Sequence record: MW650886.1
DNA: 64,000 nucleotides
From: Escherichia phage vB_EcoM-ZQ1
Reading direction: 5' to 3' (one strand)
The notes below the pieces were generated by a model. The model was not told where the DNA came from and did not search any database. It saw nothing but the letters and a program-made list of their open reading frames with translations. Positions 1,057-59,715 of this stretch are shown here, one piece after another; within the stretch, counting starts at the first letter, position 1, and every line of letters begins with the position of its first letter. The translations under genes were made by a program, and so were the position numbers.

Positions 1057-1622
1057 TTACGTTCTCCGTAGAATTTAACGAACGGTTCCCAACCATCAAA
1101 TGGATTGAGGAATTCGTAGTCCACTTTCATTTGGTCAATGAAAGCCTCTATATCGTCCTCTATGATACCAGCACGGTCGGCCTTTGAAATACGGGTGATA
1201 GGGCATTTCGTACTCAGCGCCCATTCATATTCCTGAGGGGTACGCAGATCACTCACGATATAATGGACGTGGGGGTTCTGCTCTACCAGAGGAAGCTGGA
1301 AGCGCTTGAAGAATGCCAGGAACAGATCGGGTTGTACGTAACGCAAGCCCGTATCGCTGCCTAGATGAAGCCAGATCTGCCGTGGAGTTAAGCCCTTGGG
1401 ATTATCAGGGTGCACGTAAGGAACGTCCTTCACGGCATCCTCTACCTCCGCTGGGAGCCATGGGTAGATGTAGTTGGCTACACGGCGCAGTTCATCAGAG
1501 AAAGAAAGGCGCTGTATGTCCATATCACCCTGTAAGTGGTGGTAACTGATCAGGGACTCCAAACAGAAGTCCTTACCGGAGCGCTTGCGCCCCGTAAAGA
1601 ATTCAAGATTTGGGTACATCAT
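1053..1622 (-). CDS. deoxynucleoside monophosphate kinase (T4 gp1-like)
   Basis: 189 aa; N-terminal FFTGRKRSGKDF P-loop matches T4 gp1 FLSGVKRSGKDT; YIVSDLRTPQEYEWA resembles YIVPDTRQDHEMDAA; start overlaps the stop of the next gene. Confidence 0.7.
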   Translation of the reverse strand: MMYPNLEFFTGRKRSGKDFCLESLISYHHLQGDMDIQRLSFSDELRRVANYIYPWLPAEVEDAVKDVPYVHPDNPKGLTPRQIWLHLGSDTGLRYVQPDLFLAFFKRFQLPLVEQNPHVHYIVSDLRTPQEYEWALSTKCPITRISKADRAGIIEDDIEAFIDQMKVDYEFLNPFDGWEPFVKFYGERK

Positions 1623-2665
1623 ACTACACCTTCCAGGAACTTAGGATCAATGATCTTGCGGTCAACCGGGGAATGGGTGAGCGCGGTGTTCAAGCCATGA
1701 TCCTGAATCAGGTCCAGGTTAATGAGCTTTTCGTTCAGTTTACAGTGCAGACAGTACGCCATCTGTACAATCAGGCCGCGATCCGCATCGTATTCCTTCA
1801 GGTGAGCAACCACAGTTTCCCACGGGCTACCGATATCACAGTGATGAAGCACACCAGTGAACAGATTGCGGATATGGTTCTGGTTGGTCACGTTCGTGAA
1901 GTGAATCATGGAGTTGATGAACCCAGCTTCTACTTTGGTGTCCTTCGTGATCTTTCCCAGCTGCTTCTGGCTGACTTCATTGTTGTAGTAATGAAGATTG
2001 TTAGAGAATAGCTTGTACTGACCGACATCAACATCCAGCACCCGAGCAATCACTTCCTGAAGAATAGAGAACTCAATGAAGTTAATTGAACTCATCCCCC
2101 ACAGAACATCCTGTGAGCGGTTGATGACCGTCAGGTTCAGACGACCTTCAACGATGGCGAACAACAGAGCCAGGTTACACACCATGTCCTTAGTCTTTGC
2201 TTCGCCGCTCTCGCTGAACTTCGCCAGACCAGCATCCGAATCTAGAGCCGGGTCATAGATGGTGAGGTACGCCTGGCGAGTGTTTGGGTTCTTGCGCAGG
2301 CGGTTGATAACGCTATCCAGCTGGCCATGGGCGTACAGACGCGGACCATAAGCAGCTCGCCATGTTACCCCATCATCCGAAAAGTTAGCAGCGCGAGGCA
2401 ATACGCGTGACAGGAACTTTATGTCGTTGCGACCTGACAACACCCAGAAGGTCTCGCCGATGGCAGCGATAGCCGATGAGTTGCGACCTTCAACGGAGAG
2501 CCAGCGGTCACGAATATCGGAAACAGTGATCGTCACACCATCAAGGAAGCGGGTGCTATCAGTATTGATTTCAGCATTACCAGGATCAGATTCGATCCCG
2601 AATTCACGGATAGCCAAGACAGCCTGCTTCAGCATGTCATTGTTGTTAATTGCTTTGATTTCCAT
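1619..2665 (-). CDS. thymidylate synthase family protein (possible deoxypyrimidine hydroxymethylase)
   Basis: 348 aa; core aligns to ThyA (VCNLALLF..RSQDVLWGMSSINFIEFSILQEV..SNNLHYYNNE versus [43 protein letters not shown]) with about 100 extra C-terminal residues; coupled to the flanking kinase genes. Confidence 0.6.
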   Translation of the reverse strand: MEIKAINNNDMLKQAVLAIREFGIESDPGNAEINTDSTRFLDGVTITVSDIRDRWLSVEGRNSSAIAAIGETFWVLSGRNDIKFLSRVLPRAANFSDDGVTWRAAYGPRLYAHGQLDSVINRLRKNPNTRQAYLTIYDPALDSDAGLAKFSESGEAKTKDMVCNLALLFAIVEGRLNLTVINRSQDVLWGMSSINFIEFSILQEVIARVLDVDVGQYKLFSNNLHYYNNEVSQKQLGKITKDTKVEAGFINSMIHFTNVTNQNHIRNLFTGVLHHCDIGSPWETVVAHLKEYDADRGLIVQMAYCLHCKLNEKLINLDLIQDHGLNTALTHSPVDRKIIDPKFLEGVV

Positions 2666-3324
2666 CAGATACTCCCAAAATCACGACAGAGGAATGCCAT
2701 CACAGCCTGGTCTACTGTTAGGCCGTGAGACTTCATCATACCCGCAGCCACCGTAGGGAACAAGTCTTTATGTCGTTGACGATGGTCATGAACTCTCTCC
2801 CACTTCTCGACCACCAGACTTTCATTGAAGTCCACACCGCCGTTACGTGATTTAACACGAGCGATACACGTTTCAAGAGGAGTGTCCATAAAGAGCACAA
2901 CCAATTCACGTGGTGGGCGTGTCAGACGGGGGATCCAAGAACTCAATAATGTGGATGGAATGATACCTTCGAAAATCACATCATATTTCAAGTATTCTGG
3001 TTGGTCAGCAATAGACAACGCGAACAACATCTGCTCAGTGTCCTTCAGGGAATCAACCCCCTTGGACTTCGACTTGTCATATTTACCGATACAGACCACG
3101 TTGAACGAAGGACAGACAGTCAGCATGACCTTGCCGTTATGGGTCACGACATACGCCTGAGGATCCCTCTCCGCCAGCTGAGACGGCACAGTGGATTTAC
3201 CGCTACCATTGGAGCCTTTGACGTAGTAGATTTGCCCTCGTGCTGGGTAGATCCCCTTTACGACGGGTGGTTTAAAGAATGTGTGGACGGGGCGCTTCAT
3301 CAGCCCCTTCAGGGAGTAGGACAT
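2665..3324 (-). CDS. P-loop kinase (nucleotide or DNA-base kinase candidate)
   Basis: Walker A GSNGSGKST; ATG re-set to MSYSLKG because the listed first codon is TTG and an SD (GGAG) precedes the ATG; its stop overlaps the TS-family gene start. Confidence 0.5.
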   Translation of the reverse strand: MSYSLKGLMKRPVHTFFKPPVVKGIYPARGQIYYVKGSNGSGKSTVPSQLAERDPQAYVVTHNGKVMLTVCPSFNVVCIGKYDKSKSKGVDSLKDTEQMLFALSIADQPEYLKYDVIFEGIIPSTLLSSWIPRLTRPPRELVVLFMDTPLETCIARVKSRNGGVDFNESLVVEKWERVHDHRQRHKDLFPTVAAGMMKSHGLTVDQAVMAFLCRDFGSI

Positions 3325-3333
3325 AAACTGCTC

Positions 3334-3368
3334 CAATAAACAAAAGGAGCTGCTATTATAGCAGCCCC
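3334..3368 (-). terminator. intrinsic terminator
   Basis: GCTGCTA-TTA-TAGCAGC hairpin followed on the minus strand by TTTTGTTTATT. Confidence 0.5.
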
Positions 3369-3399
3369 TTCATCTATTGAACAGTTTCTGAACTTAAAT

Positions 3400-4236
3400 T
3401 TACACAGCTTTCGCTTCAGCCAGAGCCTGTGGAAGCCATTCATTGATCGCCTTAACCAGAGACTCAGCATCAGACTCTTTGATCTTCTGACGTTTGGTGA
3501 AGGACTTGCCGTTCACATACAGACTGAAGCCCCAGCCACCGGAAACGATAGGCGCAACGTCGACATACGTATTGGTGCGGGCGTGAAGGTTTTCAGGGTT
3601 AGCCAGTTCGGTGACCGGGAACTGGAACCAACGCATGTCTGGGTTCACGTAGCTCAGGAACACGCTGGGAACAACACCAGCTTCAATCGCCGCCAAGACC
3701 GGACCGTGATCAGAAGCGCGAGCCACGTCAACCATTTCCTCACGTTTGGTGTGACGGCGTTTACGCTCTACCAGCGCCGCCTGCGGGGTCAGGGTCTTAC
3801 CCTTCGATGCTTCTTTCAACATAGAAGACGCCAAGGAACCGATTTTCGCGTCGGACGGCTGATTGCCTTCTTCCAGCGCCGCGTTGACTGCATCTTCAAC
3901 CGCGTCTACCGGGGCGTCGGACACTGAGGCTTCACATGCATCGGCAGAGATCGGTGCTTCAGCATCAATAGTTTCAGCGACTTTCAGGGATACTTCAGCT
4001 TGGGCTTGCTCTTGGGCTTGCGCCAGAGCCTGCTGAGTTTCTTCCTTCTCTTCGGCGCTCAGACCTTCAATCAGTTCGAAGCCGTTGGCAGCCTGAAGAA
4101 CACCTTCAACCATACGGCGCAGGGTAACGTTTCCGATGATCAGACCTGCTTCTTTGATTTCAGCCTGAATAGCAGCAACGTCTTTGCCTTCAATTTCAAT
4201 TTTGGTTCCAGAATCCACATGAAGAATATATGACAT
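3400..4236 (-). CDS. hypothetical protein (acidic, Ala/Glu-rich)
   Basis: 278 aa ORF with ATG and AAAGGG SD; sigma70-like promoter upstream; hairpin terminator downstream. Confidence 0.5.
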   Translation of the reverse strand: MSYILHVDSGTKIEIEGKDVAAIQAEIKEAGLIIGNVTLRRMVEGVLQAANGFELIEGLSAEEKEETQQALAQAQEQAQAEVSLKVAETIDAEAPISADACEASVSDAPVDAVEDAVNAALEEGNQPSDAKIGSLASSMLKEASKGKTLTPQAALVERKRRHTKREEMVDVARASDHGPVLAAIEAGVVPSVFLSYVNPDMRWFQFPVTELANPENLHARTNTYVDVAPIVSGGWGFSLYVNGKSFTKRQKIKESDAESLVKAINEWLPQALAEAKAV

Positions 4237-4305
4237 AATAAAAAACCCTTTCGTTATTAAGACCGTATCCGCGGCATATTGTTGTTCTGACTGTGTAGTG
4301 AGAAC

Positions 4306-4334
4306 ATAATATACTGCATTTTCATAGATGTAAA
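4306..4334 (-). promoter_or_regulatory. sigma70-like early promoter (-35 TTTACA, 17 nt, -10 TATTAT)
   Basis: Hexamers read directly on the minus strand upstream of the 3400..4236 gene. Confidence 0.4.
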
Positions 4335-5534: not shown

Positions 5535-6239
5535 CTATTTCTTCTTATGCATACGACGTGCATCTTTCCACACAGACATCTGGCTCTGTTTCTGGAAGCG
5601 GGCAGTGCGCATGAAGAGAACGATCTCCCAGTACTGTGGCTCAATCTCGTAAAGCTGTGAACGGAACTGATCGGCGCGGTACAGCTTCACACAGTGATTG
5701 TACAGCGGATGGTTGGCGAAGCGCTTCAGGGCTTCCCAGGTGAGCTTCAGACGCGTCTTTGAGCGGTATGCCCGTTCGTTACGCAACTTGATCAGATCCT
5801 CAAACACCAACAGCCTGAGCTTCGGTGGCAGGTAGTGCATGTTGAGCCCCCAGAGGTATGTCACACCCTTCTCTCCAAAGGTGATACCATCACCCTTGAC
5901 AAAGTTGAAGAAGAACACCAGAGGGTACATATCCCAGTAGGGTAGTTCATTCTTCGTCAGAGCATCATATTTGAAATAGAACATGCGCCCGACTATATAC
6001 CGCACACCTTGTACCGGACGTTTGTGATCAGCAAACGCCTGTTTCATATGGTTGGGACTCAGGTTGGCGTCCTTAGACACACGCTCCATGAACCACACAT
6101 GCGAACGGCGGATGTTACGCTTCGCCTCTGGACCGAAGTGTTGACGGTACTTGCGGATGTAACGCTTGACCAGCTCGGGGGCGTCCATCTCGGCCGGAAA
6201 CAGCAACGGATCTTCTTCGCCAGCTGCATTCTTTGCCAT
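5535..6239 (-). CDS. hypothetical protein
   Basis: 234 aa; ATG with AGGAG SD. Confidence 0.5.
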   Translation of the reverse strand: MAKNAAGEEDPLLFPAEMDAPELVKRYIRKYRQHFGPEAKRNIRRSHVWFMERVSKDANLSPNHMKQAFADHKRPVQGVRYIVGRMFYFKYDALTKNELPYWDMYPLVFFFNFVKGDGITFGEKGVTYLWGLNMHYLPPKLRLLVFEDLIKLRNERAYRSKTRLKLTWEALKRFANHPLYNHCVKLYRADQFRSQLYEIEPQYWEIVLFMRTARFQKQSQMSVWKDARRMHKKK

Positions 6240-6250
6240 TTGTCAACTCC

Positions 6251-6258
6251 TATAAATA
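6251..6258 (+). promoter_or_regulatory. T4-type late promoter motif TATAAATA
   Basis: Exact TATAAATA 34 nt upstream of the start of the 6293 gene; gp55 is encoded in this window. Confidence 0.5.
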
Positions 6259-6292
6259 ATAACAGTTATTTTATTTAAGTGGAGTCCTCACC

Positions 6293-7237
6293 GTGGAAGA
6301 CTATCGCAATTTTATCACACAGATATTACAGCGGGGCTTGTCGCGCAAGAACCGCTTCAGAGTGACCATCCCTCTACCACCAGGGGTCTTTGACTCCAAC
6401 GCCACTCTGGCTAATGACGGAAAGGCGTACAGAACCAATTCATCTTTTGGTGACTTGTTTAAGCAGTCAGCCCGTATTGTAAACGCTTTCTTTGGAGGGA
6501 CAAACCAGACGTCCCGTTCCCTTCAGATGATGTGTATGGTTGCCTCATTGCCAGGGGTTGGTATCGACACCACTCCAATGACAAACAACGGTAATCACAT
6601 CAAGATGCCAAACAACAAGTCCAACGTCGACCTCGACTTGTCATTCTTATTAGCCAATGACTATTATGAGAAGTCTGTGATGGACAAGTGGAAGAGTCTG
6701 ATCTTTGATCCTCACACCACCAAAATGGGATATTACGAAGACTTCGTGACTGACATATGCATTGAACAGCTTGACACCGAAGATCAAGTGGTCCACCGCG
6801 TCTACATCGTCGAGGCTCACCCAATAAATTTCAGTTCTATTGAGCTGGATAAAGGCGCCACAGACCAGTTCAACCAGTACAACATTTCTTTCTCTTACAA
6901 CAAAGTGCTTTCGGAGACAGAATATGAAACACGCAGCCTTTCCAGCGATTTTCTTCCTCTCGGCATTGCTGACGCTCTTACCAGTGGTGACTGGGAAACT
7001 GCGGCCTCAAAAGCTGGACAGCTTTATCGCAAGGTGAAAGAAGGGAACTTCACAGGGGAGGCTCTCCTGGCTTACAAACAGCTTGACCAACTTGTAAACA
7101 ACCTGGCTGGGATAAGCATACAGGACTTCGAGCGCATCTCGGTAGGTATCTCTCGTGACATCATGGGCAACGATAACCTGACGGCGGCGGAGAAGACAAG
7201 CCTGTTGGGAATATTGCAAGACGTGATGGGAAAATAA
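6293..7237 (+). CDS. hypothetical protein, probable late gene
   Basis: 314 aa plus-strand ORF with GTG start and GGAG SD; TATAAATA late-promoter motif 34 nt upstream. Confidence 0.5.
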   Translation: MEDYRNFITQILQRGLSRKNRFRVTIPLPPGVFDSNATLANDGKAYRTNSSFGDLFKQSARIVNAFFGGTNQTSRSLQMMCMVASLPGVGIDTTPMTNNGNHIKMPNNKSNVDLDLSFLLANDYYEKSVMDKWKSLIFDPHTTKMGYYEDFVTDICIEQLDTEDQVVHRVYIVEAHPINFSSIELDKGATDQFNQYNISFSYNKVLSETEYETRSLSSDFLPLGIADALTSGDWETAASKAGQLYRKVKEGNFTGEALLAYKQLDQLVNNLAGISIQDFERISVGISRDIMGNDNLTAAEKTSLLGILQDVMGK

Positions 7238-7257
7238 AAAGCCATCCGAAGATGGCT
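7229..7257. terminator. intrinsic terminator between convergent genes (gene 32 and the 6293 gene)
   Basis: AGCCATC-CGAA-GATGGCT hairpin with a TTTTTATTTT tract on the minus strand; weaker T tract on the plus strand. Confidence 0.55.
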
Positions 7258-7263
7258 TGTTGA

Positions 7264-8274
7264 TCAGTTAGACTTGAGATACTGCTCGAATTCGTCAATG
7301 GAAGCCGTGTTTCTGGCATTCGGTTGAGCCTGAGCCTGCGACGGCGCGGCCTGTTGCTGTTTCAGGCTGTCTTGAGCAGTTGGCTGATGTGTAGTCTGGG
7401 TGCTAGGAGCATGAGCCATCGTGGCTGCACCACCTTCAACCAGAGGCTGGTCATCAGGGATTGCCAAAACTTTGCGCAGGCGCTTTTCCAGGGAGTCGTA
7501 GTCTTTGAAGTTAGCCGGATTGAAGAATTCAAACAGGCTGTGCTCGCGAGACCAGACGTCTTCCATATACGCTTCGTCATCACTCAGAGGGGCAGGGTTC
7601 TCCCACACCACCTTACTGAAGTTTGCCACCAGACCTTCCCAGTTCCCAAACTTCTTCTGCTCGCCAAAGAGCTTCAGGTTCAGGTTGGCACCTTCCCACA
7701 GATCGAACGGATCGAATTTAGGGTCGGTTGGGAACTTAGGATTCTGCGCCTGATCCAGGATTTTCTTGATGGCGTTACCAAATTCCAGCAGGAAGACCTT
7801 GCCGTTGTTTTCCGGTACGTTGACATCTTTGATCACCAGGATGTTAGCGTAGTATTTGGTGTCGGGTAGACGTTTCTTCAGGATGTCCTTCAGCTTTTCG
7901 TCGTTCGTTTCTTTCTGCTGTGTCCACAGCGGACGGTCATGGTCGCGCACCGGATCGTCGTTACCGAACGTCTGAGGTGAGTTCTCAATGTACCATCCAC
8001 CAGGTCCCTGGAACTGATGTTTCATGATCATGGCACAAGGGGTGAGGATCTGATCTTTATCGATCGTCCCTTCTTCCTGTGCCTTGAGGTCTACCAGCGG
8101 GACTGGCAGGAAGCGGATGATGTTCTCGGAGATACCATCTTTATTCCAAGTCCATTTCCAGATGCGAGGATCCTTCTGGAAACCGGACTTCTGGCCTTGC
8201 TGTGCAAGACGCGCCTGCATAGCTTCAGTTTGCTGGCCACGGGACGCTTTCAGACGATCGAATAAATTACCCAT
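7264..8274 (-). CDS. 32: single-stranded DNA-binding protein (T4 gp32-like)
   Basis: 336 aa; IRFLPVP, WYIE, YANILVIKD..PENNGKVFLLEFG and WEGANL match T4 gp32 (IRFLPS, WYIE, YIANILVVKD..PENEGKVFKYRFG, WEGANF); acidic Gln/Ala-rich C-terminus. Confidence 0.8.
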   Translation of the reverse strand: MGNLFDRLKASRGQQTEAMQARLAQQGQKSGFQKDPRIWKWTWNKDGISENIIRFLPVPLVDLKAQEEGTIDKDQILTPCAMIMKHQFQGPGGWYIENSPQTFGNDDPVRDHDRPLWTQQKETNDEKLKDILKKRLPDTKYYANILVIKDVNVPENNGKVFLLEFGNAIKKILDQAQNPKFPTDPKFDPFDLWEGANLNLKLFGEQKKFGNWEGLVANFSKVVWENPAPLSDDEAYMEDVWSREHSLFEFFNPANFKDYDSLEKRLRKVLAIPDDQPLVEGGAATMAHAPSTQTTHQPTAQDSLKQQQAAPSQAQAQPNARNTASIDEFEQYLKSN

Positions 8275-8342
8275 TTCTTGTTTTCCTATGTTTCCGCCCC
8301 TCAGGGCTATTCTGTTACATGTATTTTCAGTTTTCTACAAAG

Positions 8343-8360
8343 CGGGGTAATTATACCCCG
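8343..8360 (-). promoter_or_regulatory. 5' UTR hairpin of gene 32 (candidate translational operator structure)
   Basis: CGGGGTA-ATTA-TACCCCG hairpin followed on the mRNA by about 35 nt of AU-rich sequence before the SD. Confidence 0.4.
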
Positions 8361-8373
8361 ATCTTATATTGAA

Positions 8374-8613
8374 TTAACCTTTAAGCACTTGATTTGCTGG
8401 GTCAATTTCAATAATGTCGAACACGTCCGAAAACGTCTTCTTACCTTCGTCGTGCGTGTGATACTCAACGACATATGAGCGACCATCAGGGGTAACGTAA
8501 CGAATACGATCCGTCTGGTCGGCATTCTCGTTCAGACTACCCACACGCCAGCGCATGGAGCCAGGAAGGAACTCGGAGGCTTTCATTGCGCTGTAAATTG
8601 ATTCTTTGCTCAT
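8374..8613 (-). CDS. hypothetical protein
   Basis: 79 aa minus-strand ORF in the gene array. Confidence 0.4.
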   Translation of the reverse strand: MSKESIYSAMKASEFLPGSMRWRVGSLNENADQTDRIRYVTPDGRSYVVEYHTHDEGKKTFSDVFDIIEIDPANQVLKG

Positions 8614-8620
8614 AATAGAC

Positions 8621-8866
8621 CTACACTAATTTCTTGGACTTTAGCGCGTCTTTGATCAGGCGCGCATCGGAGCACTCAGCTGTCAATCGTGACAACAATG
8701 GTGCTGTAATCATCTTTTTGACTTTGGTCTCGTCTATGTCGTTCTCTTCACAGACAGATGCCAGAGTCTCAAGGATACTATCCTTGGTTTGGGCGGCGCG
8801 TAGTAGGACGATTTCAGAAAATAATTCTGGTGTCATCACAAGCGCTGGCTGTTTTTCGTCAGACAT
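8621..8866 (-). CDS. hypothetical protein
   Basis: 81 aa minus-strand ORF. Confidence 0.4.
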   Translation of the reverse strand: MSDEKQPALVMTPELFSEIVLLRAAQTKDSILETLASVCEENDIDETKVKKMITAPLLSRLTAECSDARLIKDALKSKKLV

Positions 8867-9104
8867 CGATTGTGTTCCCCTTACCCGAACCCTTCTTTAT
8901 CGTACGCAAGACGTCCTTGAAGCCGTCTGGAGCTGATTGTGGTCCCTTCACCCCAGAGACAATCTTGGGAGCACCCACGATCATTTTAATCTCCCCTCCG
9001 CACTCAGTGCAGGGGTTGGATTCAGGCTCGTGGCGATCTGCAATAGATTTACGCAGAGTCATCGCGTTACCACAGCCCTTGCATTGATAATCATACAGCG
9101 GCAT
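8859..9104 (-). CDS. zinc-ribbon protein (CxxC...CxxC)
   Basis: 81 aa; YDYQCKGCG...CTECGG; ATG with G-rich SD. Confidence 0.45.
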   Translation of the reverse strand: MPLYDYQCKGCGNAMTLRKSIADRHEPESNPCTECGGEIKMIVGAPKIVSGVKGPQSAPDGFKDVLRTIKKGSGKGNTIDV

Positions 9105-9405: not shown

Positions 9406-9992
9406 ATACCTCTGTTGAAGTCTGGATTATTCTCAATGAAGTAAGAGCCACAAGCCATTATCGCAAACGAATCCACGAGGTCATCGATTGGCTTGGGATC
9501 CTTAACTTCCAACATATCCATTATACCGCGCATGCTAACATTGAACAGCGACTCGAAGTGAGCGATCATGGCGTGTTTATCCGCGTTGCCCTTGTCGGTG
9601 AACATCTTCTTCACATGGGATGGCGTCACGATCTGGAAGTCGAAATTGTTACGGCGCAGGGCTTGCTTCAATAGTGAGGTATTCTCTGCGGTCTGGCATA
9701 TGTTGTTGGAGTTCTTAGAGTTGCCCATAGCATACCCTTCAAGAGCGATCGCATCCGGCTTCTCAGTCAACAGAACAGCCTCAGCCCATTTACAGATATT
9801 ATAGAAGCGTTCTTCTGGGGTCTCCCACTTCGGTTGCTTCATGATAAGGATGTTCTGACGAATCTGAGTGCAATACTTCTCCACAGTATAATATGCGTAG
9901 AAGCGCAGATGATCAAAATCAAGAGGGTCTTTATCATCCCAGAAGCACAGGGATGGACAGCCATAGGAGTAGTCGATTCCGCAATATTTCAT
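9402..9992 (-). CDS. RuvC-like Holliday junction resolvase
   Basis: N-terminal MKYCGIDYSYG (RuvC GIDPG-like) and C-terminal DDLVDSFAIMACG (RuvC D..AD.LAIA-like); listed start is TTG, re-set to the internal ATG. Confidence 0.5.
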   Translation of the reverse strand: MKYCGIDYSYGCPSLCFWDDKDPLDFDHLRFYAYYTVEKYCTQIRQNILIMKQPKWETPEERFYNICKWAEAVLLTEKPDAIALEGYAMGNSKNSNNICQTAENTSLLKQALRRNNFDFQIVTPSHVKKMFTDKGNADKHAMIAHFESLFNVSMRGIMDMLEVKDPKPIDDLVDSFAIMACGSYFIENNPDFNRGI

Positions 9993-18840: not shown

Positions 18841-18879
18841 GGTTTTATTATACGCCGCCCTCGTAGATTGAAGGCGGCG
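18841..18879 (-). terminator. hairpin after phoH
   Basis: CGCCGCC...GGCGGCG stem followed by TATAATAAAACC on the minus strand. Confidence 0.4.
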
Positions 18880-23435: not shown

Positions 23436-23789
23436 TTACGACAGCTGCTTCAGTTTGTAGATCGTCTGATAGCACAGCGTCTTGATTTCATCAAGTGTGT
23501 TCTGAAGGTGGGAGTCACACTGCTTGTAGATGCCATCTACGTCTATCACCACACTGTTAATATAGGAGATAGGGTCTGGGTTGTACAATTTGATATTCTC
23601 GAATGATGGAACATACTGGCCACCCGCACCGATGTATGCTTCGGTAAACGTGTCCAGCAAGTCCTCTAGATCCCCGTAGAACTCCCCGAGTGCCTTGTGC
23701 TTGGCATAGGACGTTGTAACGAAGTGTAAGGCATGAGAGTGGGCTATAGCAAGCAGTCCACGGTTGATGAAAATACTCGCATTGACCAT
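23436..23789 (-). CDS. hypothetical protein
   Basis: Listed start is GTG; re-set to ATG MVNASIF with GAGGA SD; terminator hairpin upstream. Confidence 0.45.
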   Translation of the reverse strand: MVNASIFINRGLLAIAHSHALHFVTTSYAKHKALGEFYGDLEDLLDTFTEAYIGAGGQYVPSFENIKLYNPDPISYINSVVIDVDGIYKQCDSHLQNTLDEIKTLCYQTIYKLKQLS

Positions 23790-23874: not shown

Positions 23875-24180
23875 TTAGTCTTTGTCGGCAGACTTGCCAA
23901 AGAAGAATTCGAAACCGTCATGGACAGCAACGACTTCCTGACCTTGGGAGATACCGTGAGTCTGGTCTGGGGTCAGCTTCACCTTGATGGTGTTGCCATC
24001 GGTTAACTCCAGGTTGTAGACATCCGCCTGATTGTCAGGAGTGATCTGGGTCACGGTAGCGCCGGAACACCACTGAGTGCCATCAGCTTGTTTGGTGATG
24101 GATACGGTCTTACCCTGGACACCAGCATGGGTCTGAGGTTTAGCGGCTTGTTCTTTAAAATATTCGATAAACGGTTTCAT
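23875..24180 (-). CDS. hypothetical protein, probable late gene
   Basis: 101 aa; TATAAATA 24 nt upstream of the ATG plus GAGGAG SD. Confidence 0.45.
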   Translation of the reverse strand: MKPFIEYFKEQAAKPQTHAGVQGKTVSITKQADGTQWCSGATVTQITPDNQADVYNLELTDGNTIKVKLTPDQTHGISQGQEVVAVHDGFEFFFGKSADKD

Positions 24181-24204: not shown

Positions 24205-24212
24205 TATTTATA
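24205..24212 (-). promoter_or_regulatory. T4-type late promoter motif TATAAATA (minus strand)
   Basis: Reverse complement of TATTTATA, 24 nt upstream of the 23875..24180 ATG, directly after a terminator hairpin. Confidence 0.45.
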
Positions 24213-24236: not shown

Positions 24237-27200
24237 TCAGATCTTAATCTGCATGTTGCCACCCAGGGACTGCTCGTACTCGCTGTATGCGCCTTCCCCG
24301 TAGTCTCGTGCCCACTGGTCAGACTGCTGGGCGCTATCCAGAGTCATCAGGTTTGGTTCAGTCGGGTTGTAACCCTTGGACTTCGCATCCCGGTACAGAG
24401 TCTGCAGGTACTGGTTGGCGCGGTCAATCTGAGCTTTGAACTCGCGATATGCCCCTTCAGTTGTGTTGCGGCGGAAGGTGATATCCCAGTCCACGTTCAG
24501 AGTCTGACCATCACGGCTTGCATAGATCTGCCAATCCAGGTCGCGGCCTTTTGGTGCGTTGTCGCGGATGGAGTCGGCGTATGCCGCAAGGTCGTCCTTC
24601 GGATTGTGCGACGTGCTTTTCAGAAGTAGTGCATGACCCATACCACCGTTTGGCTCAAGAGACCATTTTCCTGTTTCTCTTCCCAGGCGTTCTATGTTGT
24701 TGAGTTGGTTTATCGACAATTCAGAAGAGTCAAATAATACCACATCACGTTTTTTGGGGGTTCTCACATAAGGGGTGAGATCAATGTCGATCATCCGGTT
24801 TATAAATTCTACCACTTCAGCTTGTTTCTTTGGCAATGTGGTATTGATATCCGGCTTGTTTGCCACTTTCTCTAGGCGTTTATTTTCTGCGCTTATCATG
24901 GACAGCATAATTTGTGTAACTTTGCCGTCAGACAAGTTGTAATCATTCCAAATCACTTCACCTTTATCCGTGATGGTTATATCGTTCAAGAACACCTGGT
25001 TTGGGTTGTATGACTGACTTTTCAACTGTTGGAGGTTTCTGGAAAGATATACCATTTTTGATGAAATCTCATCAATCACACTCTGGACCATATCTTTGTT
25101 TAAAGGAAGTTCATATGTCTTCGGATTGTTCAGGGTACGCCCTTTCTGAGAGACAATTGGGGTGAATGCAACTTTACCTTTGTCGTAGTAATAGGTCACG
25201 TTGGTTATCATAGAAGTACCGGCGTATTTTCCCGTTTCGGGGAAATTGACATCCCACCGAATGGACATGCCGTTGACAGTCTCACCAAACACCATGGCGT
25301 TGCTTGGTATCTTCAGGGTTCCAGAGTTGACCAGATCAGCGCCTTGGGCATTCAGGTCGATAGAACCATAGATAGCCCCGGTAATACGATCTTTCAACAT
25401 CAGGGTCTTGTCGCCCTTCTCTGGGATGATTTCCAGCGGGTGCTTGCCACGCGGAGGTTCTTTGATGAGTTCCAGTAGAGCAGTTTTCCCTGGTTTCACA
25501 CGATTCAGGACAGCGTCGGACACTGTCAGAGTCCAGTTTGCGGTTTCCACATAACCCCAGCCCCGAGAACGGCGAATGGCTTTGATAGGATATGGAGCGC
25601 TTGTTGGCACTGCGCTAATTTCCCATTTGCCAGTGTACTGGGTCTTGGCAACCTCAAAGATGGACGCAATTACTGCATTGGCGACGTCACGGGCGCTACC
25701 TTTGGCCACGTTCTCCTCTTCAGCAATTTCGCTGAAAACTGAGTATTGAACGAAACCAGCGAGGACGTTTGTGAAGTTGACAACGATAACCAACCCGCCT
25801 GCTGTCGTGTAACGACCAGCGCCCACACGACGGATGTTTTCACCAGGAAGAATAGAAGTGTCCAACCCAACGTTGGTATCAATGATACCCAGAACACGAG
25901 CGATGAAACCACTGTCACGTAATTGATCAACACTGGTTGCACCCTCGGTCGAATCCGATGCGGATTTAGACACTTTGTTCAACTTGATAGAGACAAGGGT
26001 TTCCCCGTTGACACCGATGATATCCCATTCAGTACCCTGCTCGTTCGAGGTGCGGGCAATCTTGCGCTTTGAATTGATGGCACCTTCGTAACGCCCGTTC
26101 TTGACCACAACAGAGGCAGTAGCAGCATCAGTCGCACTTGCTGCATTTGAAAAGTCTGGGTCAGAAATACTGATGTCGACGTCACCGTTTTGAGAACGCA
26201 TGCGAACACCGTTTTTGAATCGTTCAACGTTTACTTCTCGAGCACCAAGTCGTTTGGCATCAATAACAGCAGTTCCAGAACCGATAATGTTGGCTGGGTT
26301 ATTTCTGTCTGAACTGTTTTGAGAACCTTTCCAAAATTTTGTAGACGCCATGGTGAAATCATTCAGGATATTGATAGGGACTTGCGGTAATTTCAACTGA
26401 CGAGCAATGAAATCAGCACTTTGCCCACGCACAGGTTTCTCATTCATGTATGCGCCAACATACACGCCCGGCTCATTGTAGTGGGGAGCGATATTTGCCG
26501 TGTTCGTGCGGCCTCTCTCCTTACCAGCCCATAACAACATGGGCTGATCCCCGTTTGAAGTTAATTTCCATCCGTTGCCATTGCTGGTGTCATTGCTGGT
26601 GTCATTGCTGGTGTCAACGTCCACCACCAGAATTATCTGAGCACCTTTCTTGAAAGTGTACTGATCGTACATACCTTTCTTCTGTTTGGTCATGGACGCA
26701 CCGACCAAGTCTTGGTTGGTGAAGCCGCGCTTCATATTCCAAGATACCTCAGTCCCGTCTGGATATTTGTCAAAATCATAACCATAGAATGTGGCTACTT
26801 CTTTCGAACCGCTTATCAGACGGACGTAATTTCCACGAATCGGGTCTCGCCCGCTCTTCAACTCCAGACCAGTGTCCGAGCTGTTGTACCACTCGCGGTT
26901 GACTTCTATTTCAGAAGAACCAGCCCCAACTCCCACATCCGGAGTATTGTTCTGAACCGGAACGTCACCGACTTTGTCTGGATCATCCCAGGTGATACCC
27001 TGCATCTTCGGACCGTCGAATACCTGAGCCGGATCTTTACCCTTACGAACTAGCCACACATAACCACGGTCAGGAACAGGCGCGTAGGTCAGGTCCATGA
27101 CGTTCAGTTTCTGCTTCAGGCCGGACTGGCGGATGATCTTAGGAATCAGGGTCATACCGCGATCCAGCGCTTTCTTAGAGAAGTTGACAGCAAAGCCATC

Positions 27201-27527
27201 GATGGTCTTACCCAGAGGGGTCGCCATGAATTGTTTGGTCGCTTCGATCATGGAAGCGATAACGCGCATTGGGTTCTTGAAGCGAGCGATGGCGTCAGGA
27301 TAGACGGAGCCGCGCTTCTGGCCGATGAAAACCTGACGAACGCTCTTGCCCAGCCCCTGAGGAGTATAGAACTGAATGCGGTATTCCTTATCATCTTCGT
27401 CGACGAAGGTAAAGAACACATCGCCTGCGTTCTTCTTACCCATGGTCAGCTCATACGGAGCGGAGTTGAACGCTTCGTCTAACTGATCTCTTTCCTGCAT
27501 GAACTGGAGGAAACTTAGCTTTGACAT
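24237..27527 (-). CDS. large hypothetical protein (1096 aa) with internal (DTSN)x3 repeat
   Basis: Long uninterrupted ORF with AGGAGA SD; no family recognised. Confidence 0.6.
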   Translation of the reverse strand: MSKLSFLQFMQERDQLDEAFNSAPYELTMGKKNAGDVFFTFVDEDDKEYRIQFYTPQGLGKSVRQVFIGQKRGSVYPDAIARFKNPMRVIASMIEATKQFMATPLGKTIDGFAVNFSKKALDRGMTLIPKIIRQSGLKQKLNVMDLTYAPVPDRGYVWLVRKGKDPAQVFDGPKMQGITWDDPDKVGDVPVQNNTPDVGVGAGSSEIEVNREWYNSSDTGLELKSGRDPIRGNYVRLISGSKEVATFYGYDFDKYPDGTEVSWNMKRGFTNQDLVGASMTKQKKGMYDQYTFKKGAQIILVVDVDTSNDTSNDTSNGNGWKLTSNGDQPMLLWAGKERGRTNTANIAPHYNEPGVYVGAYMNEKPVRGQSADFIARQLKLPQVPINILNDFTMASTKFWKGSQNSSDRNNPANIIGSGTAVIDAKRLGAREVNVERFKNGVRMRSQNGDVDISISDPDFSNAASATDAATASVVVKNGRYEGAINSKRKIARTSNEQGTEWDIIGVNGETLVSIKLNKVSKSASDSTEGATSVDQLRDSGFIARVLGIIDTNVGLDTSILPGENIRRVGAGRYTTAGGLVIVVNFTNVLAGFVQYSVFSEIAEEENVAKGSARDVANAVIASIFEVAKTQYTGKWEISAVPTSAPYPIKAIRRSRGWGYVETANWTLTVSDAVLNRVKPGKTALLELIKEPPRGKHPLEIIPEKGDKTLMLKDRITGAIYGSIDLNAQGADLVNSGTLKIPSNAMVFGETVNGMSIRWDVNFPETGKYAGTSMITNVTYYYDKGKVAFTPIVSQKGRTLNNPKTYELPLNKDMVQSVIDEISSKMVYLSRNLQQLKSQSYNPNQVFLNDITITDKGEVIWNDYNLSDGKVTQIMLSMISAENKRLEKVANKPDINTTLPKKQAEVVEFINRMIDIDLTPYVRTPKKRDVVLFDSSELSINQLNNIERLGRETGKWSLEPNGGMGHALLLKSTSHNPKDDLAAYADSIRDNAPKGRDLDWQIYASRDGQTLNVDWDITFRRNTTEGAYREFKAQIDRANQYLQTLYRDAKSKGYNPTEPNLMTLDSAQQSDQWARDYGEGAYSEYEQSLGGNMQIKI
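26579..26614. repeat. in-frame 12-nt x3 perfect tandem repeat inside the 1096-aa gene
   Basis: CATTGCTGGTGT x3 on the plus strand, encoding DTSNDTSNDTSN on the minus strand. Confidence 0.7.
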
Positions 27528-27602
27528 TTTATATCTCCTGATTGAATTAATGGCGGTTTCTTCTAATTAGCGAAACCAAAAGGGAGCGTCAGCCCCCTTA
27601 TC

Positions 27603-27938
27603 TTATTTTTGAACTTGGGCTACAGACATCGCCCAGAGCGGGAGGGTGTGGGGGTCCAGGGCTTCCAGTAGATATTCGACGCGCTCTGACATGATACCTT
27701 CAGGGAAGTTTACTTCTTCTGGTTCGTTGTTGGCCGTCCAACCCAATGTCAGTCCTTCAGCGTGATGGATGATATAAACGAAGTCGTCTGGTTCGTAGTC
27801 CTTTTCCATCAGGGCGAAGAAATCTTCCATTTCTTCGTCGGAGAAGTAGTAGATGCGAGGTACAGAGCCGTCAGCAAAGTGCTCAGCACCCTGGAAGGCA
27901 AACATGTCATCGGCGGTGAAGTTCTTGAGTTGTGTCAT
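27603..27938 (-). CDS. hypothetical protein
   Basis: Start MTQLK preceded by the conserved leader TTGAAAAGCAGGAACTATATCATG. Confidence 0.45.
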   Translation of the reverse strand: MTQLKNFTADDMFAFQGAEHFADGSVPRIYYFSDEEMEDFFALMEKDYEPDDFVYIIHHAEGLTLGWTANNEPEEVNFPEGIMSERVEYLLEALDPHTLPLWAMSVAQVQK

Positions 27939-27986
27939 GATATAGTTCCTGCTTTTCAAGTTGGTGTCGTACTGCTTATGGAATGA

Positions 27987-28015
27987 AGTATAGGAAAGGA
28001 TATTGAAGAAGTAAA
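27987..28015 (-). promoter_or_regulatory. early promoter (-35 TTTACT, 17 nt, -10 TATACT) within a promoter-hairpin cassette
   Basis: TTTACTTCTTCAATATCCTTTCCTATACTTCATTCCATAAGCAG, near-identical to the cassette at 61083. Confidence 0.5.
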
Positions 28016-28031
28016 GGGGCGAAAGCCCCTT
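28014..28031 (-). terminator. hairpin (terminator element of a promoter-hairpin cassette)
   Basis: AAGGGGC-GAAA-GCCCCTT; T-rich on both sides. Confidence 0.45.
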
Positions 28032-28044
28032 TTATTGAATTATT

Positions 28045-28683
28045 TTACGGCGTCGGATTCACAACCGGAATGTGGGATCGAATACCTGCGATGATGTCCT
28101 TCAGCCGAGGATTCCATCCACCCACCAAACGGGGGAGAGCGATAGCGCCAGGCTGGACCAAAATGATGTCGCTGCCTGTGATATTGTGCTGAGGGAACTG
28201 AGCAAGGTACTGCTCCATGGCGACACCCTCATCAATCAGAACAGGACCGACATCAGATGACGCGTAGGTTGCACCCAGACCGTCAACGCCCCATGCCAAG
28301 ATACCCCAGTCAGGGATGTTGGCTTCAGATGTGATGGTGAATCCAAACACGGTGTTCAGCGAAGTAAAGGAATAGACATCGTGGGTGATGTCATACACCA
28401 GATACCCCTTGGCCAGCATATCGGCAAAGATCGCGTCCGTATCGCCAACAGCCGGAGTCGGCACAGTAAACAACAGCTCGCCATCAGGAGGAGCAGGATA
28501 CGTGCCGAGGGCATAGAGGCACCATGCATCAATGCACTTCTTAATGAACGCCTCTGGCGCGACATAATCAGCAAGGCGAACCGTACCTGAGTACTCTGAT
28601 ACGATAATGCCTTCCTTCGCACCCTGTAGAGCAATGAAGACCAAGATATGTTCATATCCGGCCTGAGATGGAGTGATGTTCAT
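28045..28683 (-). CDS. hypothetical protein
   Basis: Start re-set to MNITPSQ (TAATG overlap with the upstream gene). Confidence 0.45.
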   Translation of the reverse strand: MNITPSQAGYEHILVFIALQGAKEGIIVSEYSGTVRLADYVAPEAFIKKCIDAWCLYALGTYPAPPDGELLFTVPTPAVGDTDAIFADMLAKGYLVYDITHDVYSFTSLNTVFGFTITSEANIPDWGILAWGVDGLGATYASSDVGPVLIDEGVAMEQYLAQFPQHNITGSDIILVQPGAIALPRLVGGWNPRLKDIIAGIRSHIPVVNPTP

Positions 28684-29297
28684 TATCTTGTCCTCTTCAG
28701 TTTCTCTATTGTGTGCTTGTTCATGGCGATCACCTGAGGATCTACCTCGGAGATGGTCCGGCCTTCGAAAGACACACATTTCTGAAGATATTTAGCTTTC
28801 TTCACGACGTCGGCAGCATAAGCGTTCGATGCAGGATTACGGGCGAAGCCAGCATTGTAAGAGGAGAGGGATTTGCGGATATTCTGATTGTGATAGGTCA
28901 GCCAGAACTGCATCTCATCGAGGGCGGCTTGCGCGGCATATTCTTGGTCGGTCAGCAACTTTATGGCGACATTGGCATAGCACTTGCGATTCTTACAACC
29001 TTCGCGATCACCAACTGTCTTCACCTTGTTCTGAAAGGCTCCCATGTTGGCCGCCTTGAGACCGTATCGCATTGACACTACATCTTCACCAGCGCGGCTC
29101 TCTCGCCAAGATATGGCGGCCAGAGTGTAGCCAAGATCTTGTGTCTTGCCTACGTGATAGGCGGTTGCCATCGTATTAAGTTGTTGCTCGGAGAAATTAT
29201 AAACACATTGACTTGTATTTTGGGAAGCGTGCACATTCCCGCTGGCAATGGTAAAGGTCACGGACAAGGCCATGGCCTTCAACGTTGTCATCGTCAT
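28683..29297 (-). CDS. secreted lytic transglycosylase-like protein (SLT domain)
   Basis: Signal peptide MTMTTLKAMALSVTFTIASGNVHA; AISWRESRAG...GAFQ resembles the SLT catalytic ES...GLMQ motif. Confidence 0.45.
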   Translation of the reverse strand: MTMTTLKAMALSVTFTIASGNVHASQNTSQCVYNFSEQQLNTMATAYHVGKTQDLGYTLAAISWRESRAGEDVVSMRYGLKAANMGAFQNKVKTVGDREGCKNRKCYANVAIKLLTDQEYAAQAALDEMQFWLTYHNQNIRKSLSSYNAGFARNPASNAYAADVVKKAKYLQKCVSFEGRTISEVDPQVIAMNKHTIEKLKRTR

Positions 29298-29393
29298 GAT
29301 GGCGTTCCTTATGTTTGTCGACTTGCAGCTCGATTGAGCCTCCTGACAGGGGTTAAAAGATAAAGGGCACGTGATATTTAGTGCCCTTCAGCC

Positions 29394-29678
29394 TCATTCG
29401 TAGATGAGGTGGTAGGATTCCTCGATACACTCCAGCCAGCCATAGACGAACTGTAGAGGGTCATCCCATGCCGTCTTGGTCGCGACGGTAAAGTTGCCGT
29501 CCAGGATCTGCATATCTTGGTACTTGTTGAAAGCGAGTACAGCATCAACCACAATCAGGCCGCCCTGCTCAAGATAACGATTCGGAGTGACGGCCACTTG
29601 GTAACGAGGATTCCTGTGATTCCATATCTCCACAGCAATGTCACAGGAATCCTGAATTTCATCTTTGGTTTCTGACAT
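29394..29678 (-). CDS. hypothetical protein
   Basis: 94 aa ORF at the end of the gp55-gp47-gp46 operon-like array. Confidence 0.4.
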   Translation of the reverse strand: MSETKDEIQDSCDIAVEIWNHRNPRYQVAVTPNRYLEQGGLIVVDAVLAFNKYQDMQILDGNFTVATKTAWDDPLQFVYGWLECIEESYHLIYE

Positions 29679-29988
29679 ACGTTTGTCTCAGGTGTTCAGT
29701 AAAGGATTTACCCAGCTTGCGGAATAGTTTAATACGACCAATGACTTTGACGTAAACATCTCCGTGGCAGGGGCGTGGCTTACACCAGCACCCCAATACC
29801 TTCCCGTCAAGCTCAAGGAGTTCATCCTCGGTGATATCCCCTTCAATCAGGCGCACATACAGGTCTTCTTCAAACAGTTCGATACAGACGCCTCGTCCAT
29901 GGTCTTTGACCTCAAATGGGTTCCCCCATTTACCAGGCCGACCAATGTAGACGTCATATGGCTCCTTCTTGAAGTGGACGACTTTCAT
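29659..29988 (-). CDS. hypothetical protein (DUF4326-like, GNPF / CWCKP..CHGD motifs)
   Basis: 109 aa; YIGRPGKWGNPF and LGCWCKPRPCHGD; family name recalled from memory. Confidence 0.4.
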   Translation of the reverse strand: MKVVHFKKEPYDVYIGRPGKWGNPFEVKDHGRGVCIELFEEDLYVRLIEGDITEDELLELDGKVLGCWCKPRPCHGDVYVKVIGRIKLFRKLGKSFTEHLRQTYVRNQR

Positions 29989-54377: not shown

Positions 54378-54424
54378 CTTTATTAAAGATAATAACCTTT
54401 ATTAAAGATAATAATCTTTATTAA
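54378..54424. repeat. tandem repeat, about 2.5 copies of a 19-bp AT-rich unit
   Basis: CTTTATTAAAGATAATAA(C/T) repeated in the divergent gp45 upstream region. Confidence 0.6.
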
Positions 54425-56483: not shown

Positions 56484-56511
56484 ACAAAATCTCCCAAGGA
56501 TTATGGGGTAT

Positions 56512-57258
56512 TTAGTGATCCGGCCAGACTCCGTTTTGTTCTTTATCCATGCGATGATACAGACGAACACGCTCAAACATCTTTGTCAGAATGTCATCAC
56601 GGTTGAACTCAATGACGGTTGGTAGAGGGGAAGACTCGTTGGCAATCACGTTGATGAGGCGGGTGATCTTGACGCCGAACATCTGCTGGAACATGACCGA
56701 ATATAAGCACAGCTGGATACTGTAATCCTCGATCATGCCCCGCGTCTTCATGGTGTTCGATGTCTTGAAGTCGATGACAGCAGGTTTACCCTCATAAACC
56801 CCGATAAGGTCTACACGACCTGCAAGACCAAGCACCTCGCTATATAATGGGATCTCCTGAGCATAGATCTTTGTCATCTTGTTCAGGTAAGGGAACAGCT
56901 GCTTGAACATGAACATGTATTCGCCAGCCGCTTCCAACACTTCTTTCATTGGGCGGTTCTTTAGATACAGTTCACACGCAAGGTGCAGCTTCTCCCCTCG
57001 GTCAGCACAGCGCATGGTCTCAAGGTCAGCGGCTTCTGCGCCCAGCTTCTTCCTCCAAGACTCAAGCCATTCATGATCTCCAGTGCGTCCCAGCATAGTC
57101 GTGACGGATGTCAGTTTAACACCAGACGGTGAAACATAATGACGACCATTCTCCGTCGTAACACATTCCAGTTCCTTATGAGGAAGTTCGTATTGCTGGA
57201 ATGTGTAATGGCGGTTTTCGAAGTCATTCAGCTTGCGTAGATCCTGGAGAGATGCCAT
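56512..57258 (-). CDS. PD-(D/E)xK family nuclease (RecB/Cas4-like)
   Basis: VDLIGVYEGKPAVIDFKTS and QLCLYS resemble the D...E.K / QxxxY nuclease core. Confidence 0.45.
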   Translation of the reverse strand: MASLQDLRKLNDFENRHYTFQQYELPHKELECVTTENGRHYVSPSGVKLTSVTTMLGRTGDHEWLESWRKKLGAEAADLETMRCADRGEKLHLACELYLKNRPMKEVLEAAGEYMFMFKQLFPYLNKMTKIYAQEIPLYSEVLGLAGRVDLIGVYEGKPAVIDFKTSNTMKTRGMIEDYSIQLCLYSVMFQQMFGVKITRLINVIANESSPLPTVIEFNRDDILTKMFERVRLYHRMDKEQNGVWPDH

Positions 57259-59676: not shown

Positions 59677-59705
59677 TAAGAAAATACCCCCATGGATGAT
59701 GGGGG
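59677..59705 (-). terminator. hairpin with 11-bp stem
   Basis: AAATACCCCCA-TCATCCA-TGGGGGTATTT followed by TCTT. Confidence 0.4.
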
Positions 59706-59715
59706 TATTTAGGGA

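Follow-up and report, generated by a model that had tools for sequence, protein, structure and literature searches.

A probably head-packaged, modular protein with an Alt-type N-terminal domain in Escherichia phage vB_EcoM-ZQ1

Escherichia phage vB_EcoM-ZQ1 belongs to the Ackermannviridae (ViI-like, Aglimvirinae-type), and a 64,000-nucleotide (nt) stretch of its sequence record MW650886.1 (hereafter the window) raises the question of what its longest gene encodes. The product of this gene has 1096 amino acids (aa), against 781 aa for the runner-up open reading frame (ORF); it begins MSKLSFLQFMQERDQLDE and contains no cysteine. Searches of the whole protein against Pfam and NCBIfam gave no significant family, and a sequence search of the Protein Data Bank (PDB) gave nothing significant. 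In a preliminary description the gene had been presented as the biggest of the window, as devoid of recognisable domains and as containing three perfect in-frame tandem copies of a 12-nt unit. The first and third points are borne out, the latter by Tandem Repeats Finder (TRF) and by direct reading, and the second holds for such routine domain searches. Our analysis favours, with moderate confidence, a virion protein of the Alt type that is packaged in the head and has polymorphic cargo; in the best-supported form of this reading the ADP-ribosyltransferase (ART) domain of Alt was lost or never present, and a modular array is carried instead. For the Ackermannviridae, a family widely used against Salmonella, E. 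coli O157, Klebsiella and Dickeya in therapy and biocontrol, one of the most abundant virion proteins that still lack an explanation would thereby gain an identity that can be tested.

Relatives of the 1096-aa protein and their presence in virions

The gene had also been called an orphan, which it is not, because its product matches PHROG 3867 (unknown function; E = 0) and has relatives in numerous phage records. By megablast the gene is matched in 180 of them, among which Escherichia phage YX22 shares 98.7% identity across the first 2909 nt, and tblastn with the first 200 aa finds 355, sometimes at two or three places per genome. These N-terminal matches span all Ackermannviridae genera and extend to Vibrio, Serratia, Aeromonas and Ralstonia phages; judged by sequence similarity, conservation of the protein extends across the whole family. 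HMMER, run exhaustively against 1.84 billion representative proteins, returned 137 matches. When the matches are mapped onto the query, aa ~5-200 are found to lead 79 protein clusters of 279-1439 aa, most of which are otherwise unrelated in sequence. No paralogues of the N- or C-terminal domain were found among the neighbouring virion proteins or elsewhere in the window. In the searchable literature, no paper links the protein to Alt or describes its modular architecture or cassette shuffling.

The evidence for its presence in virions comes from published work on orthologues in Salmonella phage Sajous1 and Dickeya phage LIMEstone1, not from vB_EcoM-ZQ1 itself. Sajous1 gp214, an orthologue by both position and sequence, was represented by 196 spectra in liquid chromatography-tandem mass spectrometry of CsCl-purified virions, which places it among the five best-represented proteins (PMC10892097). 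The products of the three next genes were also found, gp215 with 32 spectra, gp216 with 20 and the ferritin/Dps-like gp217 with 10 (PMC10892097). Normalised for length, the gp214 spectra amount to ~0.11 of those of the major capsid protein, which as a crude spectral-count estimate corresponds to roughly tens to about a hundred copies per virion. In LIMEstone1 (HE600015; 7416-9012 of the retrieved stretch) the orthologue is split into two overlapping ORFs, 082 (the N-terminal part) and 081, both listed as "confirmed structural protein", ORF081 with 23 unique peptides and 55% coverage (PMC3296691). Because Ds25CZ, a phage of the same species, has one undivided 531-aa ORF, a frameshift error in the record of 2012 is the probable cause of the split. 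Orthologues of the protein are therefore virion components in two phages; for EspM4VN, no orthologue is listed in the text of the paper.

PHROG 3867, LIMEstone1 ORF081/082 and Sajous1 gp214 are direct orthologues or family members of the 1096-aa protein, and their sources give either no function or a "tail completion" label without support. The Sajous1 authors label gp214 "tail completion protein", the evidence not being stated (PMC10892097), and the record of Klebsiella phage UPM 2146 likewise points to a tail completion or tail terminator-type protein. The abundance of gp214 in virions would suit such a role. However, a separate T4 gp3-type tail completion protein was detected in LIMEstone1 (ORF127, PMC3296691), the target gene lies far from the tail genes, and a protein of 531-1124 aa with shuffled modules is unlike a ring-forming terminator. 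Together with the bare labels and the homology of the N-terminal domain to Alt, to which we now turn, these observations make a tail completion protein very improbable.

The N-terminal domain and its putative protease site

An AlphaFold model of the N-terminal domain, built on a 54-sequence alignment, reaches a predicted template-modelling score (pTM) of 0.79, with a high predicted local distance difference test score (pLDDT, Table 1). A Foldseek search of viral predicted structures with this model retrieved, beyond the orthologues, the annotated Alt proteins of phages phiAS5, HY03, 50AhydR13PP, CF1, Henu6 and SP18 (E 1.4e-6 to 5e-5, template-modelling score (TM) 0.55-0.59, ~170-180 columns). 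Profile-profile comparison by hhalign of the 54 N-terminal domains with ten Alt N-termini, which were mostly gathered by tblastn and share 32-100% identity with T4 Alt, gave a probability of 95.6% and E 1.1e-8 over 161 columns, residues 15-180 of the query corresponding to Alt 2-181. Homology to the N-terminal domain of T4 Alt is thus well supported at the level of profiles and predicted structures. A newer Pfam family, PF26846, is precomputed on the T4 Alt N-terminal fragments P0138 and P0139 and may already define this domain, in which case the 1096-aa protein would either score under its threshold or not yet have been compared with it.

T4 Alt, an NAD+:arginine ADP-ribosyltransferase, is a scaffolding-core protein of ~40 copies; assembly does not require it, and it is injected together with the DNA (PMC9958956, PMC5512222, PMC9503650). 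The likeness to Alt goes beyond the ~180-aa homologous domain, in that both proteins are virion components of T4-related myoviruses with a gp21-type protease and a scaffolding core, and in that some members of the N-domain family retain an Alt-type ART domain. Pfam PF03496, which also matches T4 Alt, is found C-terminally in 5 of 62 more distant N-domain clusters, and one of these five (P0067) additionally matches the PHROG "Alt-like RNA polymerase ADP-ribosyltransferase". By Pfam, PF03496 (the R-S-E type ART) is absent from the 1096-aa protein, which differs from Alt in having neither an ART nor another recognisable catalytic domain, in carrying ~900 aa of shuffled modules where Alt carries a single enzyme, and in seeming, on the crude estimate above, more abundant than Alt with its ~40 copies.

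The two domains also align at an [LI]-x-E prohead-protease site. In the hhalign alignment, L16-D17-E18 falls on I4-T5-E6 of Alt, and T4 Alt is cut by the prohead protease gp21 at ITE-6, with a second cut at LTE-619 (PMC5694885); the note on T4 Alt in GenBank X15811 reads "6 amino acids cleaved off". The motif [LI]-x-E-[AS]-F-[ND] occurs in nearly all family members after a leader of 1-45 residues, its first five positions being retained in about 90% of 79 family clusters, and in an alignment of 80 N-terminal domains L or I occupies position 16 in 70, E18 is present in 78 and A or S follows at position 19 in 76. The Alt family consensus at the aligned site is L-N-E-V-F-D. Since the site is aligned and conserved and relatives have a T4-type prohead protease, found with the core scaffold in their virion proteomes, we predict that residues 1-18 are lost inside the prohead; this cleavage at E18 we regard as probable, and it would leave AFNSAPYELTMGK as a semi-tryptic N-terminal peptide. 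A C-terminal trim like that of Alt at LTE-619 is not predicted, because no [LI]-x-E site occurs beyond aa 820.

Modules, linkers and the fate of the protein

For the region behind the N-terminal domain (aa 201-1096), the AlphaFold model has a pLDDT of 79.7 and a pTM of 0.49. Its stretches of pLDDT < 50 coincide with module boundaries, and the module layout obtained from homology breakpoints agrees with that of the model. The region would be built like beads on a string, with a C-terminal domain preceded by six small alpha/beta or beta modules (M1-M6); the linkers between them would be disordered and polar, with many S, T, D, N and G residues (Table 1).

Table 1 Positions in the window of the gene for the 1096-aa protein, its predicted parts and the adjoining elements
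Feature	Coordinates	Strand	Details
Whole gene	24237..27527	minus	ATG start; 1096 aa, 121.6 kDa, isoelectric point (pI) 8.5
Ribosome-binding site AGGAG	27535..27539	minus	7 nt 5' of ATG; read from sequence
Predicted propeptide	27474..27527	minus	aa 1-18, ends L16-D17-E18; putative site LDE↓AF, cleavage inferred
Alt-type N-terminal domain	26928..27473	minus	aa 19-200; homology aa 15-180; AlphaFold2 pLDDT 88.5
Module M1 ("insert-1")	26616..26927	minus	aa 201-304, beta-rich; missing in A221 and Sajous1
Repeat GACACCAGCAAT x3 = DTSN x3	26580..26615	minus	aa 305-316 by residue count; predicted disordered inter-module linker
Module M2	26322..26570	minus	aa 320-402
Module M3	25971..26285	minus	aa 415-519
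Module M4	25323..25961	minus	aa 523-735
Module M5	24858..25322	minus	aa 736-890; doubled in some orthologue clusters (P0008, P0015)
Module M6 ("insert-2")	24618..24839	minus	aa 897-970; matches phrog_7673 "internal head protein"
C-terminal domain	24240..24596	minus	aa 978-1096; motifs TFRRNT ... AYSEYEQSxGG; pLDDT > 90
Hairpin right after stop codon	24212..24229	minus	AAGCCCC-UUCG-GGGGCUU, 7-bp stem, dG -13.1 kcal/mol, z -3.0, no U-tract
Late-promoter box TATAAATA (T4-type, perfect)	24205..24212	minus	adjoins hairpin; serves next gene
Downstream 101-aa gene	23875..24180	minus	N-terminus MKPFIEYFKE↓Q; behind hairpin and TATAAATA
Terminator-like hairpin	27580..27599	minus	between upstream 118-aa gene and target gene

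Among the orthologues of twelve phages the length ranges from 531 to 1124 aa, and close relatives have shuffled, duplicated, moved or lost modules, so that the architecture is modular. The order is N-M2-M3-M4-M5-C in A221, N-M1-M4-M5-C in BRM13314, N-V-M2-M1-W-M2'-M5-M6-C in LHE287 and N-M2'-Z-C in Ds25CZ. M1 is 100% identical to its copy in Klebsiella Taipeivirus phages whose C-terminal domains are just 58% identical to that of vB_EcoM-ZQ1, which points to a recent exchange of the cassette between genera. In vB_EcoM-ZQ1 and LHE287, M6 is followed by the C-terminal domain. The orthologues of YX22 (6001-8919) and SilasIsHot (1360-4311) stop right after M6, ending in ...GGMGHALFLNVW and lacking the ~119-aa C-terminal domain, and this domain is hence dispensable or replaceable. 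Both end modules also have lives of their own, M6 as stand-alone phage proteins of 70-140 aa and the C-terminal domain in many small stand-alone phage proteins. Some small proteins that consist of the C-terminal domain only directly follow a DUF4326 gene in metagenomic contigs (1146-1831, 1292-1977). These contigs are short and uninformative; they may be from related phages whose large protein shrank to the C-terminal domain. In the window, the ORF at 29659..29988, ~2 kb upstream of the target gene, looks by eye DUF4326-like, which we take as a provisional assignment.

The modules themselves resemble little that is known. Across 71 relatives and fragments no Pfam family is consistent and only isolated weak matches occur; apart from these, Pfam detects neither MuF (PF04233) nor toxin or enzymatic domains in the 1096-aa protein or in this set. 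PADLOC returned nothing, Foldseek comparison of the modules with the PDB gave TM < 0.1 and no known fold, and internal sequence repeats between modules are not detectable. The sole immunoglobulin (Ig)-like signal is a match of aa 244-338, mostly within M1, to an Ig-like group 2 chain (E 0.022); no Pfam Ig family is matched. This weak match nevertheless bears on the idea of a Hoc-like decoration protein or adhesin of the capsid surface, in which an anchor domain would hold beta-rich modules on flexible linkers outside the head, where contact with the environment would make them vary. Small beta-rich modules on disordered linkers, extreme shuffling between close relatives and an abundance of the order of 100 copies (a crude spectral ratio), similar to that of Hoc, all accord with such a protein. 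Yet no Ig or other adhesion family reaches significance, and a Hoc homologue is already present, having been detected in the LIMEstone1 virion (ORF6, PMC3296691). Moreover, the N-terminal domain is homologous to that of the core-packaged Alt and has the aligned site for a protease that acts inside the prohead, and neighbouring genes carry internal-protein targeting sequences (see below). We therefore hold a surface location of this kind to be quite unlikely.

A conceptual parallel is offered by the MuF polymorphic toxins and polyvalent proteins (Jamet 2017; Iyer 2017, PMC5512222), which combine a conserved head-packaging N-terminal domain with exchangeable C-terminal cargo and are presumed to be injected. 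The protein described here differs from them in that no MuF, toxin or enzymatic domain is detected, in that its variable part is not a single terminal toxin domain but an array of several small modules, and in that it belongs to lytic T4-superfamily phages rather than to temperate siphoviruses.

The tandem repeat falls within this modular region. TRF reports an array at 26579-26616 with a period of 12, 3.2 copies, 100% match and the unit CATTGCTGGTGT. Just two tandem arrays exist in the 64 kb, which places the array encoding DTSN far beyond chance; the other, at 54378-54424 (period 19, 2.5 copies, AT-rich, CTTTATTAAAGATAATAAC), lies within the gap that separates the ORF ending at 54245 from the one ending at 54975. 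The linker between M1 and M2 comprises aa 305-319, and in the AlphaFold model aa 307-316 have a pLDDT < 50 between two beta-rich modules. With aa 201-330 as the query, tblastn finds M1 in 57 records, 51 of which match only to about aa 300; similarity to these relatives therefore ends at the repeat. The junction varies from phage to phage. DTSN occurs three times before M2 in vB_EcoM-ZQ1 and YX22 and twice in K5lambda5, once and followed by SSSVDD in CECAV_050, and once with two copies of DTSSN (a 15-nt unit) behind it in K751, M2 being the next module in each case. In Madison, two copies of DTSN and a final DTS (2.75 copies) precede a different module (ELTKSKWLNLL...), and LHE287, in which M1 lies at aa ~432-536, has a degenerate DTSN-DTGN-DNSG before Madison's module.

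The repeat is thus a spacer of low complexity that borders cassette M1 on its 3' side and coincides with a recombination joint. The preliminary description had proposed that the slippage-prone repeat could vary in length within a surface-exposed loop. Variation there is, and the copy-number differences between isolates fit slippage; the segment, however, is an ill-defined stretch between two modules at which similarity to relatives breaks, not a loop, and surface exposure is unlikely if the protein lies inside the head, as the homology to Alt suggests. That description would have been abandoned had the copy number been invariant and the protein a known conserved one, and the outcome is split, as the copy number is not invariant, yet the protein matches a conserved virion protein. 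Nothing points to a function of the repeat other than that of a flexible linker, and beyond spacer length and a recombination-prone junction it probably matters little. It is a minor feature, a variable spacer that is at most useful as a strain marker.

As a plausible mechanism, the Alt-type domain (aa ~19-180) would recruit the protein to the prohead's scaffolding core, where the T4-type prohead protease would remove the 18-residue leader by a cut after L16-D17-E18. The mature protein of ~119 kDa would stay in the DNA-filled head in roughly tens to ~100 copies and would presumably accompany the DNA out through the tail, as Alt and the T4 internal proteins do. Related phages would exchange, duplicate, move or lose modules by recombination at the linkers, and replication slippage would change the length of the M1/M2 linker formed by the three DTSN copies. 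A location inside the head seems to us probable. Ejection into the host, which is argued by analogy, has in our judgement slightly less than an even chance.

Several observations weigh against this mechanism. Both proteomes are of whole virions, in which the head interior is not separable from capsid or tail. Direct comparison with T4 Alt, though collinear, is not significant (BLASTP E 0.87; single hidden Markov model E 0.2), which is why we relied on profile-profile and structure comparison, and the cut at E18 is predicted from the motif. There is no ART domain and no enzymatic or known fold in the remaining 896 aa, so that any role as a host effector is purely conjectural. A 120-kDa multi-domain protein would need to unfold for passage through the tail tube, two relatives (YX22 and SilasIsHot) do without the C-terminal domain, and the gene has no late promoter immediately in front of it.

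Some of these points would be met by a protein that is internal to the head without being injected, namely a structural or DNA-organising component of an inner body, or a core remnant that stays in the capsid or aids DNA exit, with modules that are neutral filler. The head-packaging evidence applies equally to such a protein, which would need no enzymatic domain, and the high abundance, the mildly basic character (pI 8.5 overall and above 9 for the N-terminal domain, M2 and M3) and the large size, which makes tail passage demanding, are in keeping with it. On the other hand, Alt and the likewise-packaged T4 internal proteins are injected (PMC9958956, PMC5512222), the rapid cassette exchange seen in M1 as compared with the C-terminal domains looks like selection on function, and the length range of the orthologues is odd for a stoichiometric structural element. 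A non-injected internal protein is, in our view, unlikely.

We therefore retain the Alt-type, head-packaged protein as the working interpretation, from which a broader but doubtful proposal can be drawn. The Alt N-terminal domain might be a general head-packaging adaptor of T4-superfamily phages, with ART as one cargo of many; the Ackermannviridae array might be reshuffled in an arms race with host defences, its modules acting as decoys or inhibitors and its slippage-prone linkers as recombination joints, within a locus of injected proteins that includes the neighbours with targeting sequences and a Dps-like protein. If the N-terminal domain alone suffices for packaging, it could be engineered to carry foreign proteins into the heads of these phages, a use to which the T4 targeting sequence is already put. 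Owing to cassette shuffling, the repertoire of packaged protein differs between near-identical phages, and such differences could add to differences in host range or defence sensitivity that tailspike typing leaves unexplained.

Neighbouring genes and transcription signals

The surroundings of the gene support a locus of head-internal proteins, as far as sequence comparison can tell. The N-terminus of the downstream 101-aa gene resembles the capsid-targeting sequence of T4 IPII and IPIII, MKTYQEFIAE↓A, as does that of Sajous1 gp216, MKGFPDFLKE↓A. The pattern MK-x-[FYW]-x-[DE]-[FYW]-[ILFVM]-x-E has a single match in the six-frame translation of the window, at the start codon of the downstream gene (24180), and none in 50 shuffles; in the T4 locus (12 kb) it matches IPII and IPIII only, and in the Sajous1 locus only gp215 and gp216, both of which are virion proteins (PMC10892097). 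The downstream gene corresponds to the first ~100 aa of the 189-aa Sajous1 gp215, and this shortened version is found in vB_EcoM-ZQ1, YX22 and A221. The 1096-aa protein itself has no 10-residue MKxYxEFIxE targeting sequence. It nonetheless shares with T4 IPI, IPII and IPIII the packaging via the prohead core, the trim after x-x-E, the retention with the DNA and a coding position outside the head-gene cluster, all as proposed above, and further points of likeness are the match of M6 to the "internal head protein" PHROG and the IP-like targeting sequence of the adjoining gene. It differs from the T4 internal proteins in using a folded 180-aa domain and in being about ten times larger.

The transcription signals had led the preliminary description to suggest that the gene, followed by a hairpin and a late promoter, closes an early or middle unit. 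Both signals are real, the TATAAATA box having just three occurrences in the window, and the closing of a unit is a reasonable idea, but it is silent on function. The reading that goes with it makes the product a non-structural one of the early or middle class and places the repeat in a surface loop; it fits the position of the gene among replication and recombination genes (gp46/47-like, primase) and agrees with the absence of a late promoter immediately upstream. In the coding strand of 27528-29370 we found no TATAAATA, CTAAATAnCCC or TTCAAT-N14-TATAAT, the nearest upstream promoter-like motif being CTAAATAtCaC at 29381..29371, and in the LIMEstone1 annotation the small upstream gene is preceded by a middle promoter and the orthologue followed by late promoters (PMC3296691). 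However, in two independent proteomes orthologues rank with the most abundant proteins of the virion, the repeat links modules instead of forming a loop, and T4 ipII and ipIII likewise lie away from the head genes, in early-type surroundings (regB, denV, e) and within a few kb of regB. A non-structural early or middle protein is thus largely refuted by virion proteomics, and we leave it hardly any probability.

Other genes near the target are of interest in their own right. The nearness to regB seen in T4 recurs here, as a gene that bears a RegB-like annotation in relatives lies a short distance upstream, at 28683..29297. Next to it, and two genes upstream of the target, the gene at 28045..28683 on the minus strand (MNITPSQAGYEH...) is the orthologue of LIMEstone1 ORF085, a "confirmed structural protein" of unassigned function, and the cluster of virion proteins therefore extends upstream. 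On the other side lies a Dps/ferritin-like gene at 23436..23789 on the minus strand (listed ORF to 23843), which is called a "starvation-inducible transcriptional regulator" in relatives and in which no targeting sequence is obvious. The orthologues, gp217 in Sajous1 and ORF078 in LIMEstone1, were both found in virions. It is unusual for a Dps-like protein to be packaged, and the authors of the Sajous1 study suggested that it has an iron-related role in entry (PMC10892097).

Two Ackermannviridae regulatory motifs described for EspM4VN recur in the window above expectation. With <=2 mismatches allowed, TTCAAT-N14-TATAAT is matched 22 times (4.7 expected), for the most part on the minus strand; with <=1 mismatch allowed, CTAAATAnCCC is matched 7 times (1.8 expected), twice perfectly (CTAAATACCCC). 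Example sites of the two motifs, all on the minus strand, are 9520-9545, 18847-18872, 56505-56515 and 59702-59712.

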